Positions 2,539 to 39,067 are shown, numbered from the stretch's first letter. The stretch is 64,000 bases of DNA from a virus (IMGVR_UViG_3300021431_000100:24871-88870); one strand, 5' to 3'. Numbers and translations are program-made. The notes: generated from the letters alone by a model not told the origin.

Positions 2539-4597
2539 AGAGTAGTAGCTTAATGCCCCTGCAAAGTGTGGAAATTGCTGGAAAGTCCTAAAGTTTATTA
2601 TGCTACAACGTATTCTTAAACAGAACAGCGTGAACGCTTGAAAAATAATAAAATGAGCCGTCATGCTCGTAACGGAAACCACATGACGACGATGAAATGG
2701 ATAATCAGCAGCTAAAACCTCGTCAATGATTTTATTGAAGGGGGATGCTCAACGAGTAAGTAGGGAATACACCCTCGCTCACACTAGCTTAAATGTATTA
2801 AACACTTGGCGTTAAAGTGGCATTTAAGTGAAAGATATGCTCTAATCTTTATAGAAACACAAAGAAAAGGTGGAATGTATGTTATCCACCTAAATTATAA
2901 AATACTTGTTAAAATGCTATATTGTTTTGTTTTAAAATATTTTTTAAATTTTCAGTTGAAAGATTTTCTTTGTAAGAAATGCGGATGAGTGTTATATCAT
3001 GTTCTTTACATAATTTTTCTTTAATTATGTCGTTTTGATGATGTAAATCAAAATCAAACGTAGATATTTTGTTTTTCATTTTGATTTCGTGAAATGGTCC
3101 ATCATATTCAATGGCAAGATTTAAAACGGAGAAATATCCGTCAAGAGATAATTGGTCTTTGTTTTTTAACCAATCAAATTGTTTTTCAAATTCAGGTTCT
3201 TGATTTAAAATTTCTGCTATTTTTAATATACAATAAGTTCCTGTTTGAGACATTTGTGAGGAAAGATTGTTCAATATGTTTAATTCTTGATATACATTGT
3301 TTAAAGAATGGTCAAAATATTTAAGTATGGTTGGCAAACTGTATTTGGATTCATTAATAATAATGTTTTCACTAAGTACCCCATATTTTTTAACAATGGA
3401 ACTTAAATCTGTGAGAATATCATTTTTAGTAATTTTTTTGTGCATATTAGGTTGTAGACCCATTTCTTTTAACAATCCATTAAAACTACCAAAAAATCTA
3501 TCAACCGCACTTTGGGGTATGTTGGCTTCTTTAGACCGTTGGATTTTTGTGTTAAATTTGCCATATTTATGATAAAGCTCAAAAGAACGTTTTAGGATTG
3601 ATTCTTTAGTGAATTCGTTTTGATATGGTTTAATACCATATAATTTTACAAATTTTGCGAAAGAACCATAATGCTTTTTCATTTGAAATTGAGTAAGTTT
3701 TTTATCTGAGTGTGATAAAAAATATTGTAAAGTAAACTTATCTGTTGAATTATCGGATTGAAATAAAGTATATATTCTTTGTAGTTCAGATTTAAATAAT
3801 TGTTTAATTTCAATATTTTGTTGTTTTTCAAGAGGTTGTTCCCCGTTTATACCAATCATTTGTTTAATTTGGGTTAATTTCCCAACAGTTTTTTGAATAT
3901 GATATTGGCTACAATTTGCAACTTTTATTAATTCGTCCATTCGCAAATTACCATTAGTGTTAAAAAGATTTTTTGCAATTTGCAAAATGTCTTTTTTTGT
4001 TGGTTTGTTGAGCTTGGGACGGGTTGCTAGAGCGTCACATTTTACTTTATAAATATCATTCCAACAAGAAAGAGATTTTTTGAAATTTGTAAAAGTTCCA
4101 AATAATTCATAAAAATATTCTTTGTTGTAGTTATTCTTTGTTAAAAAGTCTTTTGCAGAAAAATCAATATGTGTTTGTTCCCAATATTCTTCTCCTTTTA
4201 GAATAGCTTCTTCTTTTGTAAAAGTATAGTTCCCTTTACGGTTAGCTAAATGAGCCATGCTAATTTTGTTTTTGGTTTTTTCTGAATGTGAGCGGTCAGT
4301 TTTGACAGGAGTAAATTTAAAAGTTTTTACGGTAAAATGGTTTGAGTTTTGTTGATTGTATTTTCTAACAAGAGTGAGAAACCCTTCTGTACTTGTAAGT
4401 TCTTTTGACGTATACTTACCTTTTTGAATGTATAAAGTTTTATTAATTGTTCCATATTGATTATAAATTTTATAAAAATCATCAAACAATTCTTGTTCAG
4501 AAAAAGTAGTAATTTTTTTCATATTTTGTTAACAACTCCTTAACAGTTATTATATAATATAATATATAACAAAACAAGTATTTTATAATTTTTTAAG
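2539..4597 (+). mobile_element. Group I intron (IA-like, with P7.1) in dnaE
   Basis: Exon ends in U; P1 GGGGU/GCCCC with U.G pair; P AATTGCTGGAAA 2573, Q AATCAGCAGC 2703, R TCAACGAGTA 2749, S AAGATATGCTCT 2832 with covarying P7; P8 CTTAAATG/CATTTAAG; terminal G at 4597; P10 AGCTTAAT pairs with exon 2 GTTAAGTT; splicing restores VGG-VKLDILKL. Confidence 0.92.
2909..4522 (-). CDS. Intron-encoded homing endonuclease, antisense to the intron (NUMOD3-like motif, repeated helical units, C-terminal Vsr/DUF559-like PD-(D/E)xK nuclease)
   Basis: HSEKTKNKIS motif; repeats of type TKE.IL...FG(S/T)F; C-terminal LDGYF...LAIEYDGPFH...KEKLCKEHDITLIRI; AGGAG RBS. Confidence 0.8.
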   Translation of the reverse strand: MKKITTFSEQELFDDFYKIYNQYGTINKTLYIQKGKYTSKELTSTEGFLTLVRKYNQQNSNHFTVKTFKFTPVKTDRSHSEKTKNKISMAHLANRKGNYTFTKEEAILKGEEYWEQTHIDFSAKDFLTKNNYNKEYFYELFGTFTNFKKSLSCWNDIYKVKCDALATRPKLNKPTKKDILQIAKNLFNTNGNLRMDELIKVANCSQYHIQKTVGKLTQIKQMIGINGEQPLEKQQNIEIKQLFKSELQRIYTLFQSDNSTDKFTLQYFLSHSDKKLTQFQMKKHYGSFAKFVKLYGIKPYQNEFTKESILKRSFELYHKYGKFNTKIQRSKEANIPQSAVDRFFGSFNGLLKEMGLQPNMHKKITKNDILTDLSSIVKKYGVLSENIIINESKYSLPTILKYFDHSLNNVYQELNILNNLSSQMSQTGTYCILKIAEILNQEPEFEKQFDWLKNKDQLSLDGYFSVLNLAIEYDGPFHEIKMKNKISTFDFDLHHQNDIIKEKLCKEHDITLIRISYKENLSTENLKNILKQNNIAF

Positions 4598-6352
4598 GTT
4601 AAGTTAGATATTCTTAAACTCTCAAATATGGAGTCGTTATACGACCAAATTGATTTATTAAAAAAAGAATATGATATAGATATGAAACTCGCAGACATTC
4701 CTCTTGACGACGAAAAGACTTGGGATTTGATTTGTTCTTGTGATACCACAGGCGTTTTTCAGATGGAAGGTGCTATAGGTAAAAATATCATTAAGCAAAT
4801 TCAACCTCATAACATAGAAGAATTGTCAGCGGTTAATGCGTTTGTGCGACCTGGTACTTCTGGTCTTGAAAACTATTGTGCTGCTAAAGAAGACCACTCT
4901 TTAATTCCGAAATATGACCCAAAAATTGATAAATGGTTAGCACCTACTTATGGAGCAATCGTTTATCAGGAGGAGATTCTTGGTATGATTTCCGAAATGA
5001 TGGGCGTGTCATTTGGTCGTGCAGATATTTATCGTCGTGCGTTAGAGAAGCCAAACAAGAAAGGTAACAAAGAGTTATTTGAAGATTTCTTAAACAATGG
5101 TGTATCTAATGCTGTTAAAAATGGTATTGATGAAGAAGGAGCAAAACGCATCCAAAAAGCAATAATTGATAATGCAGGTTATCTCTTTAATAAGAGCCAT
5201 TCGATTGCCTACTCCATAATAAGTTATTGGTGTGCTTGGGTTAAAGCCAATTATCCATTAATTTTTTATCTTTCTTTGTTTAATACTGAGCCTGTATCAA
5301 AATTACAGGATTGTATGCAAGAAGCTATTAAGCATGGAATTAAAATTGAGCCACCTGATATATCTAAATCCAAATTTGAATCCACTATTGAGGATAAAGA
5401 GAATATGGTTATTCGTATGGGTTTGAATTGTGTAAAGGGTATAGGTGACAAAGCTGTTGAGGAATTAACACCACAGCAACCATTTAGCGATTTCGCTGAT
5501 TACTTTGAACGTGCAGGTAAGGGTTCGGGTAAGGGTGTTGTAGAAGCAGGAATTAAAATTGGTGCATTTGAAAGTATGCCGATTAAAATTCATAAGCAGT
5601 TAATTCCCGATAATTGTCCGTTGAATATAAAAGACAACGGTGAAGAAGTTCAAGTATATTTAAATAGAGAGCAACAATTGATTTGGTACAATTCTTATCT
5701 TGATAATAAGAAGAATAAAGCTGTACCGAATTATGCAATCCCTTACGATTTGATTAAGGGCGAATATTTTGATAACTTTGATAGTGACGAATTAATTCAA
5801 GAAAAGGACGGGACTTTAATTATTCCCGAAACCATGCTTGATAAGTTTGGGTTCAATGAAACGCAAGCAGAACAATATAAAACTCGTAAAAAACCAAAGG
5901 GCGTTTTAAAAACTGCAGTAGAAGAATTTAAAATGACCCCTATAGAAAAGGGATTTAAGAGTGCTTACGAAGATATTGTTGCTTGTAAAGAAAGCAAATT
6001 ACAACAGTATTTGCAGAATATGGAAGATTTTGAATTGTCGTTTATTCCACACCCTCTTGAAGCACAAAACAAAATGATTGTTTTAATTAGCGAAGCTAAA
6101 GACGGTGCAACGGTAAAATCAGCAGGAATTATTGTTGATATAATTACCCGACAAACCAAAACGGGCAAGCCTTTTTATAATGTAATTTTGCAAACTCCTA
6201 GAGAGAAACAAAGACTTACTGTATGGAGTAATGTTTTTAATAATTATAGAGATATTATGACAGTAAATCATATTATAAAAATTACAGGTAAGATAGGTTT
6301 TGGTGGTATTACCGTAGACGGAATTTGGGACGCTAAAGCTAATTATAATTAA
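4598..6352 (+). CDS. dnaE: DNA polymerase III alpha subunit, exon 2
   Basis: VKLDIL, TTGVFQME, VRPG, VYQEE, GYLFNKSHS, PPDISKS and GLNCVKGIG motifs plus C-terminal OB fold; in frame 30 nt upstream of ATG 4628. Confidence 0.93.
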   Translation, partial: VKLDILKLSNMESLYDQIDLLKKEYDIDMKLADIPLDDEKTWDLICSCDTTGVFQMEGAIGKNIIKQIQPHNIEELSAVNAFVRPGTSGLENYCAAKEDHSLIPKYDPKIDKWLAPTYGAIVYQEEILGMISEMMGVSFGRADIYRRALEKPNKKGNKELFEDFLNNGVSNAVKNGIDEEGAKRIQKAIIDNAGYLFNKSHSIAYSIISYWCAWVKANYPLIFYLSLFNTEPVSKLQDCMQEAIKHGIKIEPPDISKSKFESTIEDKENMVIRMGLNCVKGIGDKAVEELTPQQPFSDFADYFERAGKGSGKGVVEAGIKIGAFESMPIKIHKQLIPDNCPLNIKDNGEEVQVYLNREQQLIWYNSYLDNKKNKAVPNYAIPYDLIKGEYFDNFDSDELIQEKDGTLIIPETMLDKFGFNETQAEQYKTRKKPKGVLKTAVEEFKMTPIEKGFKSAYEDIVACKESKLQQYLQNMEDFELSFIPHPLEAQNKMIVLISEAKDGATVKSAGIIVDIITRQTKTGKPFYNVILQTPREKQRLTVWSNVFNNYRDIMTVNHIIKITGKIGFGGITVDGIWDAKANYN

Positions 6353-19486: not shown

Positions 19487-20072
19487 TGAAGAAAAATATA
19501 ACATTTATCGTAGAGTTTTTTTAACTCTTTGTGATAAAATTAGTAAAATGTTAACTGTCTACCCTGCAGATGAAAAAGCTATTAAAGAATGTACTGTTAA
19601 ATTGATAGTTGCAGGAGTACAAGTCATTATTGGGATTAACTATAATGATATAGAATATAATTATAAATTTGCTAGTTCTGTATATCGAACTATAATATCT
19701 GCAATGTTAATGCTTAAACCCGAAGAATTGGCAAAAATCTTTATTCCTGAGAAAACATACGACGGGGAGAGGTTTGGAGAAAAAGATTATTTCTTTGCCA
19801 AACGAGCTATTGAGAAACAAAAAAAAGTAGGATTTAATAACAATATTGAAACTCTATTAGATTATTTAACTGATTTAAATAATCTTAGTGCGATTTTGTT
19901 TGTTATTAATTGCGAAAAAATTCAACGTTGTCAAATTGAATATGAAAATCGCCAAAGAACAGCAAAAAAAATTGATGCTATTATGAAAAAGTTTAAATGT
20001 GGCGTTATACTTAATAAACACGGTAAGTTGGAACATACTTATATATATGATAATGGGAGGCTCAAAAAATGA
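19470..20072 (+). CDS. Hypothetical protein
   Basis: 200-aa ORF overlapping its neighbours. Confidence 0.7.
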   Translation: MKKKISEEKYNIYRRVFLTLCDKISKMLTVYPADEKAIKECTVKLIVAGVQVIIGINYNDIEYNYKFASSVYRTIISAMLMLKPEELAKIFIPEKTYDGERFGEKDYFFAKRAIEKQKKVGFNNNIETLLDYLTDLNNLSAILFVINCEKIQRCQIEYENRQRTAKKIDAIMKKFKCGVILNKHGKLEHTYIYDNGRLKK

Positions 20073-20632
20073 GCGATATAAAACGTTTTGACCCCGAATT
20101 TACAGAGGACGGGCAGTTTATACCCAAACAAAAGTTCTGTGCTAGTTGTAAAAAACGTATGCAATGCGACAAGTTATATGATAAACGCAAAGAAAATCAT
20201 ACTACTAATGACTATTCAGAAATTGTATTGGATATGTATTATACATGCGACGAGCATGAAGCCATGTATATAGAATTCCCTATTTTGGTTAATGGAATTA
20301 CTAGTGATATTGCTTTTGACCGAGATAATAATGAATTCAGAGTTGGTGATATGTGTATTGTTTCTGTTAATGCCGAGGGGTTTGACGACAAATTACATTT
20401 AGGTATATATTTGGGCATGTTGCCTGTATCAATTATATCTTTATATGATAAGAAAAATACAAAAATTACAAATAAGTTTAATCCTAATCCTGCTATATTT
20501 GTACCCAAGTTTAATAAAGTATTTTATGGTATGAATATGCGGTGGCAGTTTATAGAATCTAAAGAGGATTTGCTTGGGTTAGACGACAATGAACCTGTCG
20601 ATTATCTCAATATGGTTAATAACAAATTTTAA
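20069..20632 (+). CDS. Hypothetical phage protein
   Basis: 187-aa ORF, ATGA-coupled; CxxC...C N-terminus and NPAIFVP motif. Confidence 0.7.
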   Translation: MSDIKRFDPEFTEDGQFIPKQKFCASCKKRMQCDKLYDKRKENHTTNDYSEIVLDMYYTCDEHEAMYIEFPILVNGITSDIAFDRDNNEFRVGDMCIVSVNAEGFDDKLHLGIYLGMLPVSIISLYDKKNTKITNKFNPNPAIFVPKFNKVFYGMNMRWQFIESKEDLLGLDDNEPVDYLNMVNNKF

Positions 20633-20638
20633 AATTTT

Positions 20639-20670
20639 CCTCACTGTTTTTAAACAGTGAGGATTTTTTT
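20639..20670 (+). terminator. Intrinsic terminator insulating the cas operon
   Basis: CCTCACTGTTT / AAACAGTGAGG with T-run. Confidence 0.8.
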
Positions 20671-20690
20671 GTAAAAAATTTAAAAAACTA

Positions 20691-20719
20691 TTGACATTTT
20701 ATTGAGTTTGTGATTTAAT
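20691..20719 (+). promoter_or_regulatory. Sigma-A-like promoter of the cas operon
   Basis: TTGACA-N17-TTTAAT with TG extension and upstream A-tract; RBS GAAAGGA. Confidence 0.65.
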
Positions 20720-20776
20720 ATAATTGTAAGTTTGAAAAGTAATTAAATATTACAATTAGAAAGGATGACTTAAACT

Positions 20777-21979
20777 ATGGCAAAAAAGAAAAATACTAGT
20801 AACACCACAACCGCTACTACTGCACCTGTTAAGGAATTGACCAACTTTTCTTTGGAACGCAGTTTGTTTGTTTCAAGTGCAGGAAAGCTCAGTGCTGTTA
20901 AGTGGGAAAACCGACATGGAATTCAGGCAGATGTTCTTATCGACAAATTTCAGGGTGGTGCAAATGCTTGTAAAACCCACTATATGAAAGACGAGGCTAC
21001 TATTTTAGCGGAAGCTTGTGACAACAATACTCAGCAAGACCTTGATATATGTCACCTTCCTGTAGGATTTGATACTTTGTGCTTGGAATTTTCTGTGGAG
21101 GCACAGCCATTTAACAAGAAGCGAATTTCCGCTTGTAATCTTATGTCAGTAAGAAAGCGTTTGGCTTCCCTTGTTACTGAGTATGTAACTAATTGGGGAT
21201 TTAAGGACATTGCAGTGCCTTATGTAAACAACGTGGTTAATGGTTGTAGTTTGTGGAGAAATCAGAACAGTGCTGACGAGATTATAACTGAAATCGAGAT
21301 TGGCAATGGTAAGCAGTTTGTTTTCAATTCTTTTAACTACGACCAGAACAAGTTTACAACAAACGACCCTCAGATTAACGAGATTGCAGATATGATTGCC
21401 GACACCCTTTGTGGGAAGCAGAGATTGTTCAAGATGACTGTCCGTATTTATGCTCGCCTTGGTGACAGACATATTGTATATCCTTCTCAAAACCTTATTA
21501 TGGACACTAAAGGCAAGTTCCTTTATGAGTTGAATTCCGACCACCTTGCAGGACTGCATGACACTAAGATTGGTGCCGCGTTGCGTCGTATTGATACTTG
21601 GTATCCAGATTATATTAATAACAATAAAGAACCTATTCCTGTATACGCTTATGGTCAGGATAGAACTGAGAACATTGTTCATAGATATTCTTTTGACAGC
21701 AATATTTATGGATATATTAAGACTTGGTTGCTTGAAGAACAGGATATTCCTGACGAAGCAAAGCATTTTGTTATGAGTTGTTTCGTTTTTGGTGGAGTAT
21801 TTAACCCAAAAAATAACAATGACAAGAACGACGCTAACAATAATAACAATGCTGACGCTAATGGCGATAAGACTGAAACTAACGATAGTGAAGTTAAGGC
21901 TGAGGCTGAGGAAACCGTTAAGACTGACGTTAACAAAAATGAGGCTGACGACGCTAACGCTACTTTGGCTATGTTTTGA
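20777..21979 (+). CDS. cas7f: Type I-F Cascade backbone Cas7f (Csy3)
   Basis: LP..DTL, VNG..LWRN, VYPSQ.L, KIGAALRRIDTWYP and PIPV..YG motifs characteristic of Csy3. Confidence 0.9.
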   Translation: MAKKKNTSNTTTATTAPVKELTNFSLERSLFVSSAGKLSAVKWENRHGIQADVLIDKFQGGANACKTHYMKDEATILAEACDNNTQQDLDICHLPVGFDTLCLEFSVEAQPFNKKRISACNLMSVRKRLASLVTEYVTNWGFKDIAVPYVNNVVNGCSLWRNQNSADEIITEIEIGNGKQFVFNSFNYDQNKFTTNDPQINEIADMIADTLCGKQRLFKMTVRIYARLGDRHIVYPSQNLIMDTKGKFLYELNSDHLAGLHDTKIGAALRRIDTWYPDYINNNKEPIPVYAYGQDRTENIVHRYSFDSNIYGYIKTWLLEEQDIPDEAKHFVMSCFVFGGVFNPKNNNDKNDANNNNNADANGDKTETNDSEVKAEAEETVKTDVNKNEADDANATLAMF

Positions 21980-21992
21980 GGAGGTTTGAATA

Positions 21993-22535
21993 ATGTTTAG
22001 TCAGGAGATTGTGTTGGATGAACCGAGCACTCACATGTTGAGTAATGTAATGAAAAAACTGCATGGTCTGTTTAGTCAGGAGGTAAATTGTGGGAAATTC
22101 GCTGTGTCTTTCCCACAGCATTCCTTCAATAACAAGAAAGAACTCCAACTTGGCAATACAATTAGCGTTTTGTGCAACGAAGAAAAAACTTTGGCTGATT
22201 TAAATTTGTTACAGGAGTTTTCTGAATGGAAACTTCTTACCGTTAAGCCTAACATTACAAGTGTTGATAAATATTGTCTGTTTAAACGGGCACACCTTCA
22301 TTCTTACAAGGCTCATGTAACAAGAAAAATGAAGCGTGGAACACTGACTAATACAATTGATTTGTTTCAAGCACAAGAAAAGAAAAAGGAAGAATTTTCA
22401 AAACATGCGTGTTTGAAAATGTCAAGTAAATCTACAAGACGTTATATGAAGCTGTATATTACAAAAAGCAAAAACGTTGAAAATGCCAAGTTCAATTCTT
22501 ATGGATTGGTTACAGAAAGGATTAGTAATGGCTAA
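21993..22535 (+). CDS. cas6f: Type I-F crRNA endoribonuclease Cas6f (Csy4)
   Basis: KLHGL (catalytic His), AVSFP, LG..I, SSKST and FNSYGL motifs. Confidence 0.82.
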   Translation: MFSQEIVLDEPSTHMLSNVMKKLHGLFSQEVNCGKFAVSFPQHSFNNKKELQLGNTISVLCNEEKTLADLNLLQEFSEWKLLTVKPNITSVDKYCLFKRAHLHSYKAHVTRKMKRGTLTNTIDLFQAQEKKKEEFSKHACLKMSSKSTRRYMKLYITKSKNVENAKFNSYGLVTERISNG

Positions 22536-23649
22536 GAAGAAGAAAGAACCAAAAGATTTTAAAACTGAAACTGAACATGCGATTAACAAGTTGGTTAAGG
22601 CTAATACTTTTAAAAAGATGTTGGCAAATGACTGTTTTGACTCTACAATGTTTGCAACCCACGTTTCAAAGTTTTTGCATACTAAAATTAGCTTAAATAA
22701 CGTTGCCAATTTGTTTGATGATTCGGTTGCAGATAATCGTGATTATTTATGTACTGCAAATTCGGGTTATAGTGACCCTGATATTATTTTTAATGGAGCA
22801 ACCGTTAAAGCTATGCTTGCGACATTTTTATCATGTGAAATTACATATAAAGATGCACAAGGAGTTGAGAAGATTGTTACCATATTGCAGTTATTAAAAG
22901 ACGATTACAAATATTTACGTGACGCTATAACATATTTGATTGACGAGAATTATCTTTTTGTTGTGGACGATTATGACGATTTTCGTAATAAGGCGTTGAG
23001 TTGTGTTAAAACTCCTATGCCTATAAATTCTAGCCCATTGAACAATCAGATTTATTTCCCTGTTGCTGAAAATGACTATGTTTTGCTTGACCCTATTCCT
23101 TCTACTGTACTTTTTAAAGAGGTGCATAATAAGTTAAAAAATGTAAAAAATGTTTCAAAAATTCGTTATGCTATGGGTAGCGATAAGTGGAGAAACACAA
23201 CCACGAGCAAGATTGTTACCAAAACAGGCGATTTCGTCACGAGAGATATGTCTGCTAATTATATGTTCCTTACTTTGCCCCCACAAAGCTTGTTGAAAAA
23301 GAATAAGCGTAAGGTAATTTATCCAAAATTTAATGTGGAAAATATGCAAGGTGTACAGAACGGAATGCTTATTGATGACACTTTGCTTGATACAATTTGT
23401 AAAGAAGGTCTGAGAGGTCGGGCTACTGCCAAGGCTGAACGTGCAGAACGTGACGACAGTGTTAAGAGAAACTTTTTGGAAAAATATGGTTGGAGTGTAA
23501 TCCCCAACGGATATGAAATTCATCATATTATCCCAATTTCTCAAGGTGGAGCAGATGCAGTAGAAAACATGATTTTGTTAACAAAAGCACAACATGCAAT
23601 TATTACTCGTTGCCATTCTGCATATTTTGGGTGGCACATGAGGGTGTAA
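22528..23649 (+). CDS. cas8f: Cas8f (Csy1)-like large subunit with C-terminal HNH nuclease
   Basis: ATHVSKF.H and QIYFPV...Y.LL.P Csy1 motifs; C-terminal EIHHIIPISQGG...ENMILL...QH; ATG 22528 after AGAAAGG, overlapping the cas6f stop. Confidence 0.82.
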   Translation: MAKKKKEPKDFKTETEHAINKLVKANTFKKMLANDCFDSTMFATHVSKFLHTKISLNNVANLFDDSVADNRDYLCTANSGYSDPDIIFNGATVKAMLATFLSCEITYKDAQGVEKIVTILQLLKDDYKYLRDAITYLIDENYLFVVDDYDDFRNKALSCVKTPMPINSSPLNNQIYFPVAENDYVLLDPIPSTVLFKEVHNKLKNVKNVSKIRYAMGSDKWRNTTTSKIVTKTGDFVTRDMSANYMFLTLPPQSLLKKNKRKVIYPKFNVENMQGVQNGMLIDDTLLDTICKEGLRGRATAKAERAERDDSVKRNFLEKYGWSVIPNGYEIHHIIPISQGGADAVENMILLTKAQHAIITRCHSAYFGWHMRV

Positions 23650-23661
23650 AAGGAGGCAACT

Positions 23662-24480
23662 ATGGGGAAGTATGTTTTGATTGACGGAGTAGAAATTTTT
23701 GGTGCGAATGCATTTCATCGCATTTGTGTAGGTACTCCAGCTATGACAGCGTTAATGGGCTTTGTAGAAAAGTTGAAAAATGAACTGAGGGAAGAATATA
23801 ATAATCCTGCCATTAATATAGAAGCGGGATTTATTATTAATGATTATTGGCTTGACGCAGTTAAGGACTCAAAATATAAGTCGCTTCACATGAACGCAAA
23901 GACTGTAGAATATTATCGTGGTGACAGTAACCATTCACAAAAAAAGATTTTGAGTTGTCAGTCAGTGTCTAATCAGGCGTATATGGATTTAAACATGTCG
24001 TTTCTTTTAAAAATTGAAAATTTGCAAATTACCAATGACGTAACATGTTTTATTAAAAATATAGTTGAAACTTTGCGTGTTGCGGGTGGTAAAATTACAG
24101 AAGTTGACGACGTGTTTGAAATTGAAGACCTTCAAGACGTAGAATGGGGTGGACGTTTTATTACCTGCGAACAACATGCTTTGAATGAAGCAGAGGGTGA
24201 CAATATGCTTGACAAGATGATTAAAGCTTGTCAGGATGATTATAGACTGAAAGTAATTCCTTATGGATATAGACAGGAAACCCCGTTTCGTTTAAATGTT
24301 AAAAATGTACGAGAAGAAAATGTACCACATTGTTTTGTTGAATCAATTTATACATTGATTAAATTTAAACATATTTCTGAAATTGAAAGCATTGATGAGC
24401 TTTGGTGGCATTATGAATATCGTGAAGGTAGCAACAATGATGGTATTTTCATTTGTACACAAGAAAAATCAGTTGAATAA
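23662..24480 (+). CDS. cas5f: Type I-F Cas5f (Csy2)
   Basis: N-terminal I.GANA....GTPAMTALMGF..KL motif, LRVAGG.I and position in the operon. Confidence 0.8.
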   Translation: MGKYVLIDGVEIFGANAFHRICVGTPAMTALMGFVEKLKNELREEYNNPAINIEAGFIINDYWLDAVKDSKYKSLHMNAKTVEYYRGDSNHSQKKILSCQSVSNQAYMDLNMSFLLKIENLQITNDVTCFIKNIVETLRVAGGKITEVDDVFEIEDLQDVEWGGRFITCEQHALNEAEGDNMLDKMIKACQDDYRLKVIPYGYRQETPFRLNVKNVREENVPHCFVESIYTLIKFKHISEIESIDELWWHYEYREGSNNDGIFICTQEKSVE

Positions 24481-24496
24481 ATTGCTAAAAAAAATA

Positions 24497-24526
24497 TTGA
24501 CAAACACTCTTTAATTAACATATAAT
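24497..24526 (+). promoter_or_regulatory. Sigma-A-like promoter upstream of the SSB gene
   Basis: TTGACA-N18-TATAAT. Confidence 0.6.
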
Positions 24527-24662
24527 ATTTTATGTCAGGAATATTAAACAATTGCAGTGACAATCAATATTCGCTGACATAAAATATTATAGCTACATTG
24601 ACCGAGTTGCCACACATGCACTACAGCTAATATAGCATATCAAGCAAACTAGGTACAATGTA
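24521..24662 (+). ncRNA. Candidate structured RNA / leader between cas5f and the SSB gene
   Basis: Perfect 18-bp inverted repeat 24521-24538/24574-24591 with inner stems; second stem TACATTG-ACC / GGT-A-CAATGTA 24594-24662. Confidence 0.35.
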
Positions 24663-24688
24663 ATACAGTTAATGGAGGTATTTTATTT

Positions 24689-38031: not shown

Positions 38032-38050
38032 TTTATGAGGTGATGTATAA

Positions 38051-39067
38051 ATGGCTGATGAAAAACATATTTCTTTTGGCAATTTAGCTAAATTCAAAGA
38101 AAAATATGACGAAAAACTAAGTGATGAGTTGACAAGTAGAGTAGACGTTGTAGAAGGTAAAGGTCTATCCACTAACGACTTTACCAACGAACTTAAAGCT
38201 ACTCTTGAATCTGCTTTACAGGTTAACGATTTGGTTGACTATGCTAAGAAAACTGATATTTCTAGTGTGTTTAAATACAAAGGTAGTGTAGAAAATTATT
38301 CTGATTTACCATTAGAAAATACAATTGGTGACACTTACGATATTGTTAATACTAACGCAGAACATAATATTGATGCAGGTGATAATTTAACTTGGAACGG
38401 TGAAGGTTGGGATAATTTATCAGGCATAATAAATTTAACTCCTATTAACACTAAACTTAGTGAAATGGAAACTTCTGTTAGCAATATTGGTAAAGTGGAA
38501 TTTACAAGTGATGAAGATATAGAGTCCTTGTTCTATACCAAGAAATCTATGACAAATAGTCAGAATTTGGCTGATTTTTTTGGATTGAAAACAGGTTGTG
38601 TGAAAAACGCTTACAATGGAGACAGCGAGTGTTATCGCCTTTCTTTAAAAGATACCAATAACAAAGTTGTTAATGAAATATATAGAAATAAAGCAATCTT
38701 ATGGAATCAACAATATGTTAACGAAAAAGCATTTGATTTTAAAATTAATGACATAACAATAAATGTTTTGTTTGGGGATGTTGTTAATCGTGATGCAATA
38801 TTTACGGACGGTTATAATAATTTATATACTATTGATGCAAATGGTAATCACATTTATCAGTATTCTGCACAACCTGAAACTATTTTGAAACAGCCGTCTA
38901 ATAATCTCAGCGTATTAGCACAGCGAATCAATGATACAAATTCCTGCTTTAAGGCAGATTATACCAATGGTGTTTTTTCAATTATCAACACTGATGGTGA
39001 TGATTTTGTAATTTCCAACACCGCAGGTTCTAAGATTGATGTAGCAAGTAAGTTGAATTTTGCATAA
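38051..39067 (+). CDS. Tail-fibre-like protein
   Basis: VDVVEGKGLSTNDFT and VFKYKGSV..Y.DLP...GDTY fibre motifs. Confidence 0.65.
   Translation: MADEKHISFGNLAKFKEKYDEKLSDELTSRVDVVEGKGLSTNDFTNELKATLESALQVNDLVDYAKKTDISSVFKYKGSVENYSDLPLENTIGDTYDIVNTNAEHNIDAGDNLTWNGEGWDNLSGIINLTPINTKLSEMETSVSNIGKVEFTSDEDIESLFYTKKSMTNSQNLADFFGLKTGCVKNAYNGDSECYRLSLKDTNNKVVNEIYRNKAILWNQQYVNEKAFDFKINDITINVLFGDVVNRDAIFTDGYNNLYTIDANGNHIYQYSAQPETILKQPSNNLSVLAQRINDTNSCFKADYTNGVFSIINTDGDDFVISNTAGSKIDVASKLNFA

Follow-up and report, generated by a model that had tools for sequence, protein, structure and literature searches.

How does a virus put to use a CRISPR effector that lies apart from any guide-encoding array? The question is raised by four tightly packed plus-strand genes, cas7f, cas6f, cas8f::HNH, and cas5f, at positions 20777-24480 of a viral sequence of 64,000 nucleotides (nt) (IMGVR_UViG_3300021431_000100:24871-88870). 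We refer to this whole stretch as the window; it is contained in a single IMG/VR record of 88,870 nt (G000). Sequence comparison confirmed that the operon encodes a Cas3-less effector of type I-F4 with intact HNH and Cas6f catalytic residues. With moderate confidence, we read it as a functional HNH-Cascade on a jumbo phage (at least 333 kb) that was acquired as a cassette, takes its guides from a distal array in the phage genome, and is used much as the Vibrio phage ICP1 uses its own type I-F system.

The original prediction, drawn from this stretch of DNA, described four adjacent genes of the Csy3, Csy4, Csy1, and Csy2 types. Profile searches bore this out, with matches above the Pfam cut-offs for all four genes and concordant NCBIfam calls. 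The coding features are listed below with their expectation values (E), lengths being in amino acids (aa).

20777-21979, + strand: cas7f (Csy3), 400 aa, backbone subunit; Pfam Cas_Csy3, 6.7e-65
21812-21976, + strand: Asn/Asp/Glu-rich low-complexity C-terminal tail of Cas7f, residues ~346-400, from the translation
21993-22535, + strand: cas6f (Csy4), 180 aa, endoribonuclease acting on precursor CRISPR RNA (pre-crRNA); Pfam Cas_Csy4, 7.7e-17
22528-23649, + strand: cas8f::HNH, 373 aa, a Cas8f-like N-terminal domain in which a linker and HNH nuclease replace the helical bundle
23317-23649, + strand: linker and HNH nuclease domain, Cas8f residues ~264-373
23662-24480, + strand: cas5f (Csy2), 272 aa, subunit binding the 5' handle of the CRISPR RNA (crRNA); Pfam Cas_Csy2, 4.3e-24

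In Pfam, the open reading frame (ORF) of cas8f matched both Cas_Csy1 (7.6e-15, profile positions 19-191 of 378) and HNH (1e-5, residues 346-368 of the 390-aa ORF). The ORF finder had placed its start at TTG 22477. We preferred ATG 22528: an AAAGGA ribosome-binding site lies 6 nt before it, and its 8-nt overlap with the cas6f stop resembles the short cas6/cas8 overlaps seen in relatives. An AAGGAGG ribosome-binding site also precedes cas5f.

All four proteins found their best matches in the Protein Data Bank (PDB) among solved I-F4 subunits. Cas7f matched the I-F4 Cas7f of 8w1p (E 4.1e-48), Cas6f matched 8w1p_I (1.5e-16), and Cas5f matched 8w1p_H (4.1e-38), while Cas8f-HNH aligned end to end with chains 8ydb_J/9sjn_A/8w1p_G (1e-46). 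Canonical I-F subunits scored far below these: the Cas8f match reached 19 bits and the Cas5f match 36 bits. The HNH-Cascade of Selenomonas sp. RGIG9219 was described by Altae-Tran et al. 2023 (PMC10910872), its structures have been solved as 8w1p, 8ydb, and 9sjn (PMC11480323, PMC11459484, PMC12848945), and the name "variant I-F4" comes from Makarova et al. 2025 (PMC12669027). Given the matches to 8w1p and 8ydb, the prediction of an HNH-fused, Cas3-less I-F effector homologous to this Selenomonas system was correct.

The catalytic residues are in place. In Cas6f, the histidine of a KLH motif and an S-x-ST motif align with Selenomonas Cas6f, and we take these to be the equivalents of the catalytic His29 and Ser148 of Pseudomonas aeruginosa Csy4. 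Within the HNH domain of Cas8f, H332, H333, N347, and H356 are invariant in a nine-sequence family alignment. Of these, H333 aligns with the catalytic His305 of Selenomonas Cas8, whose mutation abolishes cleavage (PMC11480323). The tail of Cas7f (~55 aa, acidic and Asn-rich) extends past the alignment to the 335-aa solved I-F4 Cas7f, which stops at residue 346; it is also found, in diverged form, in the variant protein P0156.

The protein features expected of type I-F4 were found here: an HNH domain replacing the helical bundle of Cas8f, an intact HNH centre, and Cas5f, Cas7f, and Cas6f of the I-F lineage. Neither Cas3 nor Cas2-3 appeared on the 88,870-nt record or in the gene lists of L009, L041, and L199. 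The absence of cas1 and cas2-3 stated in the original prediction also held, as profiles for Cas1 (PF01867) and Cas2-3 (TIGR02562) found no match on the whole record. The marks of canonical I-F1 or ICP1-like loci, namely Cas2-3, Cas1, and a full-length Cas8f with its helical bundle, were likewise not found in the phage locus; L158 and L159 show that canonical layout. The other I-F4 loci examined further have a flanking array of 28-nt I-F-type repeats and 32-nt spacers. Covariance-model, k-mer, and fuzzy-match searches found none in ~114.5 kb of the phage, and we therefore file the locus as an orphan I-F4 effector module and not as a complete CRISPR-Cas locus.

Kinship with Cas8-HNH systems, for which the original prediction had looked to phylogeny, was clear from a Cas7f tree with canonical I-F1 and Vibrio-phage I-F proteins as the outgroup. 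The phage proteins fell within the I-F4 clade (100/98), on a very long branch to which the tree gives no firm position inside that clade. When HMMER was run in full over 1.84 billion representatives, the Cas8f-HNH family came to six clusters (50% identity) at E<1e-30. One of these is formed by the phage protein, which shares at most 40% identity with the other five. Judged by sequence, the phage I-F4 is the most divergent member among those found in this analysis.

Gene order told a similar story of family membership. The arrangement cas7-cas6-cas8HNH-cas5 had been taken for a circular permutation, which is accurate relative to canonical I-F (L158) but not as a peculiarity of this locus, since all 15 other I-F4 loci examined (Selenomonas ruminantium ATCC 12561, a RUG metagenome-assembled genome, L003, L007, L008, L157, and L161-L169) have the same order. 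It is a trait of the I-F4 family.

We also noted stand-alone HNH proteins of ~220-250 aa (L014 6258-6977, L015, L170; P0011-P0025), in which the C-terminal ~105 aa are 42-52% identical to the linker and HNH domain of the phage Cas8f. Those traced to genomes belong to Selenomonadaceae (Anaerovibrio, Mitsuokella). It is possible, from this similarity, that they are relatives of the donor of the HNH domain.

The second part of the question concerns the carrier. Along with its listing as a virus, G000 has phage-type genes for a split DNA polymerase, SbcCD, RuvC, a gp32-like SSB, ThyX, a UvsX-like recombinase, a helicase, PhoH, and tail-fibre-like proteins. A 333,100-nt ENA contig (ERZ12302815 NODE_18), colinear with G000 over 140,182-254,715, encodes proteins identical to those of the window, and an identical Cas7f occurs on contigs of up to 404,374 nt. 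The check on the origin of the contig thus upheld the claim of a jumbo phage, through the virus record, the contigs of 333-404 kb, and 13 tRNA genes. Moreover, the junctions g187/cas7f and cas5f/SSB recur in independent assemblies (L004, L005, L011) and in a variant phage, L202, which excludes a chimera. A 99%-identical fragment of the phage occurs in the OCTW metagenome set (L160), and loci matching S. ruminantium cas genes at 99.7% identity (L162) come from its sister set, OCTX. Because of this co-occurrence, the phage probably comes from the rumen.

To describe how the operon sits in the phage genome, the flanking features are needed.

20069-20632: phage gene g187, upstream of the terminator
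20638-20663, + strand: intrinsic terminator of g187, an 11-bp stem with a trailing T-run; marks the cassette's left edge
20691-20724, + strand: putative sigma-70-type promoter of the cas operon, with -35 TTGACA at 20691-20696 and extended -10 TG-n-TTTAAT at 20711-20719, at 17-nt spacing
24481-24688, + strand: right edge of the insertion, with the SSB consensus promoter at 24497-24526 and a structured leader

The terminator scan supported the idea that an upstream terminator insulates the operon, and the terminator is identical in L202. An own promoter had also been proposed, and the putative element listed above, which is kept in the diverged L202, agrees with this. A TATAAT at 20719-20724 was rejected as its -10 box, being 22 nt from TTGACA and thus too far away. 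The window contains 8 consensus promoters of the sigma-70 type where 0.8 would be expected, a ten-fold enrichment, and on this basis the phage appears to use host-type promoters.

The neighbours named in the original prediction, ruvC and sbcCD upstream and ssb and thyX downstream, were identified as RuvC, SbcD, SbcC, a gp32-like SSB, and ThyX. Two cas-less relatives, G002 and G003, whose SbcC proteins are 53% and 49% identical to that of the window (tblastn), share the order SbcD-g133-SbcC-g236-g356-(g200)-g187-SSB-ThyX. Their g187-SSB gap is only about 260-280 nt, and the 208 nt after cas5f align with this intergenic region. By this comparison, an insertion of ~3.85 kb (roughly 20665-24495) separates the g187 terminator from the SSB promoter; it is made up solely of the operon's promoter and the four cas genes. 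Because the cas-less relatives keep the same gene order, we regard the operon as a self-promoted insertion and not as part of the recombination module. More distant jumbo relatives (G004, 233 kb, 90% complete; G005, 409 kb, 96% complete) had no Cas7f.

The sequence just beyond cas5f belongs to SSB. Its promoter is a perfect TTGACA-18-TATAAT (12/12), and its leader of ~155 nt is structured (fold z-score -2.75) and conserved in G002 and G003. We considered 24481-24688 as a CRISPR leader or array and rejected it, as it is SSB's own promoter and leader and holds no I-F repeat. A 15-bp inverted repeat overlaps the -10 box of the SSB promoter. By analogy with the mRNA of T4 gp32, the leader region may be an autoregulatory operator.

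The variant phage L202 has a Cas7f 87% identical to that of the window and the same insertion site, terminator, and promoter. At a synonymous divergence (dS) of about 0.25, the ratio of non-synonymous to synonymous divergence (dN/dS) was 0.21 for cas7f, 0.07 for cas6f, and 0.09 for the N-terminal ~300 codons of cas8f covered by L202. The cassette is clearly under purifying selection. Its guanine-plus-cytosine (GC) content is 0.35 vs. 0.33 for the phage.

From homology to the Selenomonas complex (8ydb/8w1p), whose mechanism has been worked out (PMC10910872, PMC11480323, PMC11459484), the phage proteins would act as follows. Six Cas7f, one Cas5f, one Cas6f, and one Cas8f::HNH would assemble on a 60-nt crRNA. 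Cas6f would cleave the hairpin repeat and stay on the 3' end of the crRNA, Cas5f and the Cas8f N-terminal domain would hold the 5' handle, and the six Cas7f would cover the 32-nt guide. The complex would then bind DNA flanked by a protospacer-adjacent motif (PAM) and form a full R-loop, and its own HNH would cut both strands on the PAM-distal side, without Cas3. We propose that a jumbo phage acquired this module as a 3.85-kb cassette with a host-type promoter and may direct it, much as ICP1 does its own system (PMC10161043), at rival mobile elements or at loci of the host. Bacterial loci have an array downstream of cas5f, which the cassette did not bring along, and crRNAs must therefore come from elsewhere. 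Their most likely source would be an array in the other 220-290 kb, roughly two-thirds, of the phage genome, and host arrays are the main rival source.

The favoured reading, a functional HNH-Cascade fed by a distal phage array, has to be set against the searches for such an array. In 15 of 15 non-phage I-F4 loci, the first repeat lies 105-120 nt after cas5f. Full arrays follow in 12 of these loci, one of which has an additional upstream array. In the short contigs L007, L008, and L157, whose ends carry only the first repeat, a covariance model built from eight distinct repeats (R1) recognised it (E 4e-8 to 0.016). Searched with the same model, filters on or off, the phage yielded no I-F or I-F4 repeat in ~114.5 kb (NODE_18 140,182-254,715), comprising the window, the rest of G000, and its ENA and Logan extensions. 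This amounts to about one-third of the genome. The sole R1 match in the phage (E 0.12) is 56 nt inside a coding region and is not credible. The phage locus is the only one without a flanking array among the 16 I-F4 loci examined, so an array at a distance would be atypical for the family. Scans of IMG/VR for I-F4-like repeats returned no array contig with the phage Cas7f or otherwise tied to the phage. A further difficulty lies in Cas8f. The PAM-reading and duplex-wedging residues of Selenomonas Cas8 (D83, K85, R88, N193, S196, and S204; PMC11480323) are G, T, A, K, N, and T in the phage, with K42 retained. The PAM of the phage complex is thus likely to differ, and the target rules of the Selenomonas system are not transferable to it. 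These points all weigh against the reading we prefer. They also qualify the description of the locus as a minimal RNA-guided DNA cutter: the Cas3-less effector with its HNH nuclease stands, but self-sufficiency does not, with no CRISPR repeat in the ~114.5 kb.

Other search methods gave the same picture. On the 88.9-kb record and its extensions, exact and near-exact periodic repeats, dispersed repeats, intergenic gaps, and Rfam revealed no array, and fuzzy matching to I-F4 and P. aeruginosa repeats and a search for handle-plus-hairpin mini-guides produced nothing credible in the phage sequence. Gene-free gaps beyond the window that might have been arrays proved to be tRNA clusters, and the matches of the IMG/VR array scan were coding tandem repeats (e.g., L119) or arrays of unrelated elements. 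Another jumbo phage (G010/L235, IMG/VR 3300021514_000002, 363,531 nt, 100% complete) was tried as an array partner and set aside, as it has no Cas7f match at E ≤ 0.001; its PhoH-like match is only 27% identical over 166 residues. That phage has a nine-repeat I-F-type array at L235 1912-2431 (repeat GTTCACTGCCGTATAGGCAGCTTAGAAG) and so mirrors the studied phage, with an array where the latter has only the effector genes. Two further loci, G011 and G012 (L255 9250-13282, IMG/VR 3300045988_176777; L256, 3300045988_162833), were also set aside, as they encode a canonical, HNH-less I-F Cascade. These viral contigs (112 and 166 kb) carry full-length cas8f, cas5f, cas7f, and cas6f with a mini-array and a TnpB/Cas12f-like gene nearby, and the 16-18 kb read showed no Cas2-3.

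Could the guides instead come from the host? A possible alternative, if a distinctly less probable one, is that the phage has no array and that its Cas6f and Cascade-HNH load host I-F or I-F4 crRNAs, cutting competing phages and plasmids matched by host spacers. Such use, about which we are equally tentative, would work even with the host's Cas3-dependent pathway absent or blocked. The contrast between the repeat-free 114.5 kb and the arrays of all 15 cellular loci fits this idea, as does the cassette boundary directly after the cas5f stop, by which the array was not co-transferred. Repeats of I-F systems are strongly conserved across very divergent Cas6f proteins, making cross-use plausible. 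A candidate setting exists too: L003 (a 40-kb contig from JGI 3300037400) is a cellular I-F4 locus with an 11-repeat array and a GC content of 0.34, close to the phage value, from the same metagenome as L202. The LigA of this genome shares only 47% identity with its S. ruminantium counterpart, which shows that I-F4 is not confined to Selenomonas. However, the search covered only about one-third of the phage genome, and the phage Cas6f is distantly related to Selenomonas Cas6f (E 1.5e-16, 64 bits). With host spacers directed at the phage, the system would destroy its own carrier unless PAM rules differ. Moreover, none of 373 spacers collected from I-F-type arrays of fetched bacterial and viral loci matched the phage, giving no link to any host. 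Taken in its broad form, with an array nowhere in the phage and host crRNAs serving either against rival elements without Cas3 or in a crRNA sponge with another PAM rule, the idea is still one we doubt more than we credit, and a distal phage array remains the most likely source. If host crRNAs were used, the phage would provide the first viral example of a multi-subunit "guide-pirating" CRISPR effector.

The sponge taken by itself, in which the phage Cascade would soak up host pre-crRNA and crRNA under a different PAM requirement and so disarm host immunity, seems to us quite improbable. There is a parallel in an array-less phage Cas9 proposed to derail host crRNAs (PMC10910872; variant II-C2 in PMC12669027), and the changed PAM-reading residues would suit such a role. 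Yet a pure decoy would have no need of the intact HNH active site and the purifying selection, and four genes make a costly decoy.

The original prediction had gone on to suggest something like a programmable homing nuclease next to recombination genes. Functionally coupled to RuvC, SbcCD, SSB, and UvsX, it would make breaks repaired from the phage copy. HNH-Cascade does make defined double-strand breaks (PMC10910872), and phage recombination genes are nearby. However, the order of the recombination/replication module is unchanged in the cas-less G002 and G003, so the adjacency is incidental, and the cassette has its own promoter and an intergenic site. The adjacency does not speak for functional coupling, and we give homing very little credence. 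Finally, one could suspect a locus in decay, or bacterial DNA wrongly joined to a phage contig during assembly or binning, from the missing array and adaptation genes and a CheckV completeness of only 50%, but this is effectively refuted by the same junctions in four independent assemblies and L202, the phage-like GC, the open frames and intact motifs, and dN/dS values of 0.07-0.21.

Several observations concern the phage itself. Its 13 tRNA genes (Tyr, Leu x2, Lys x2, Asn, Glu, Ile, Ser, Asp, Cys, Thr, Gln) form two clusters at L041 15606-20603, ~10-15 kb past the window end, with consensus promoters before each. Upstream of the window, directly before large structural genes, lies a run of at least nine tandem paralogous genes of ~404-446 aa without a Pfam match (L199 1-11215, L001 881-3427). 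The DNA polymerase is in pieces, with PHROG matches at L002 137-2248 and window 4628-6352, between which is a minus-strand ORF of 537 aa (2909-4522). G000 21656-22065 and window 38048-38441 are near-identical, with up to 36 nt exact, and contain the starts of a 476-aa and a 338-aa ORF; by their similarity, these stretches appear to be a recent partial duplication or gene-conversion tract. A viral scan with one protein from beyond the window returned no match.

The effector class is already known and solved. What is new is its phage carrier, the orphan state of the locus, and the divergence of the proteins, including the Cas7f tail. No Cas8-HNH was found among 50,697 INPHARED phage records, and in IMG/VR it was found only in the studied phage; the literature searched held no paper linking HNH-Cascade to phages. 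HNH-Cascades of type I-F4 are extremely rare and are under development as compact, very specific genome editors, and the changed PAM-contact residues of the phage Cas8f may widen their targeting range. The locus also illustrates the movement of an I-F4 module into a virus as a self-contained cassette, and its missing array offers a concrete, testable case of how array-less viral cas modules obtain guides.

Compared with the I-F4 system of Selenomonas, the phage has the same four proteins in the same order, the same Cas8f layout of N-terminal domain, linker, and C-terminal HNH, and the same catalytic histidine and HNH motif, and both loci are without Cas3, Cas1, and Cas2. They differ in that the phage Cas8f-HNH is only ~36% identical to its nearest non-phage relatives (best BLASTP alignment). 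The Selenomonas locus lies on a bacterial chromosome with an array after cas5f, whereas ours lies on a jumbo phage with none. The extra ~55-aa Cas7f tail, the changed PAM-contact residues, and a GC content of 35% also set the phage version apart.

The type I-F system of Vibrio phage ICP1 (structures 7wwu and 8k0j) is likewise a phage-encoded I-F Cascade and provides a functional precedent; it is used offensively against a host-borne anti-phage element (Seed et al. 2013, cited in PMC10161043). By contrast, ICP1 has arrays and a Cas2/3 needed for cleavage (PMC10161043), and it has no HNH. Its Cas7f is only 27.5% identical to that of our phage, and a close relative of ICP1, Vibrio phage 1.161.O, has cas1 and the canonical csy1-csy2-csy3-csy4 order.

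Other huge phages, in the survey of Al-Shayeb et al. 2020, reportedly carry CRISPR-Cas loci without adaptation genes and sometimes without nucleases. To our knowledge, none of those systems is an HNH-fused I-F Cascade. The studied phage differs from them in its built-in nuclease and in having no local array, but resembles them in its large genome, its many tRNAs, and a cas module without cas1 or cas2.

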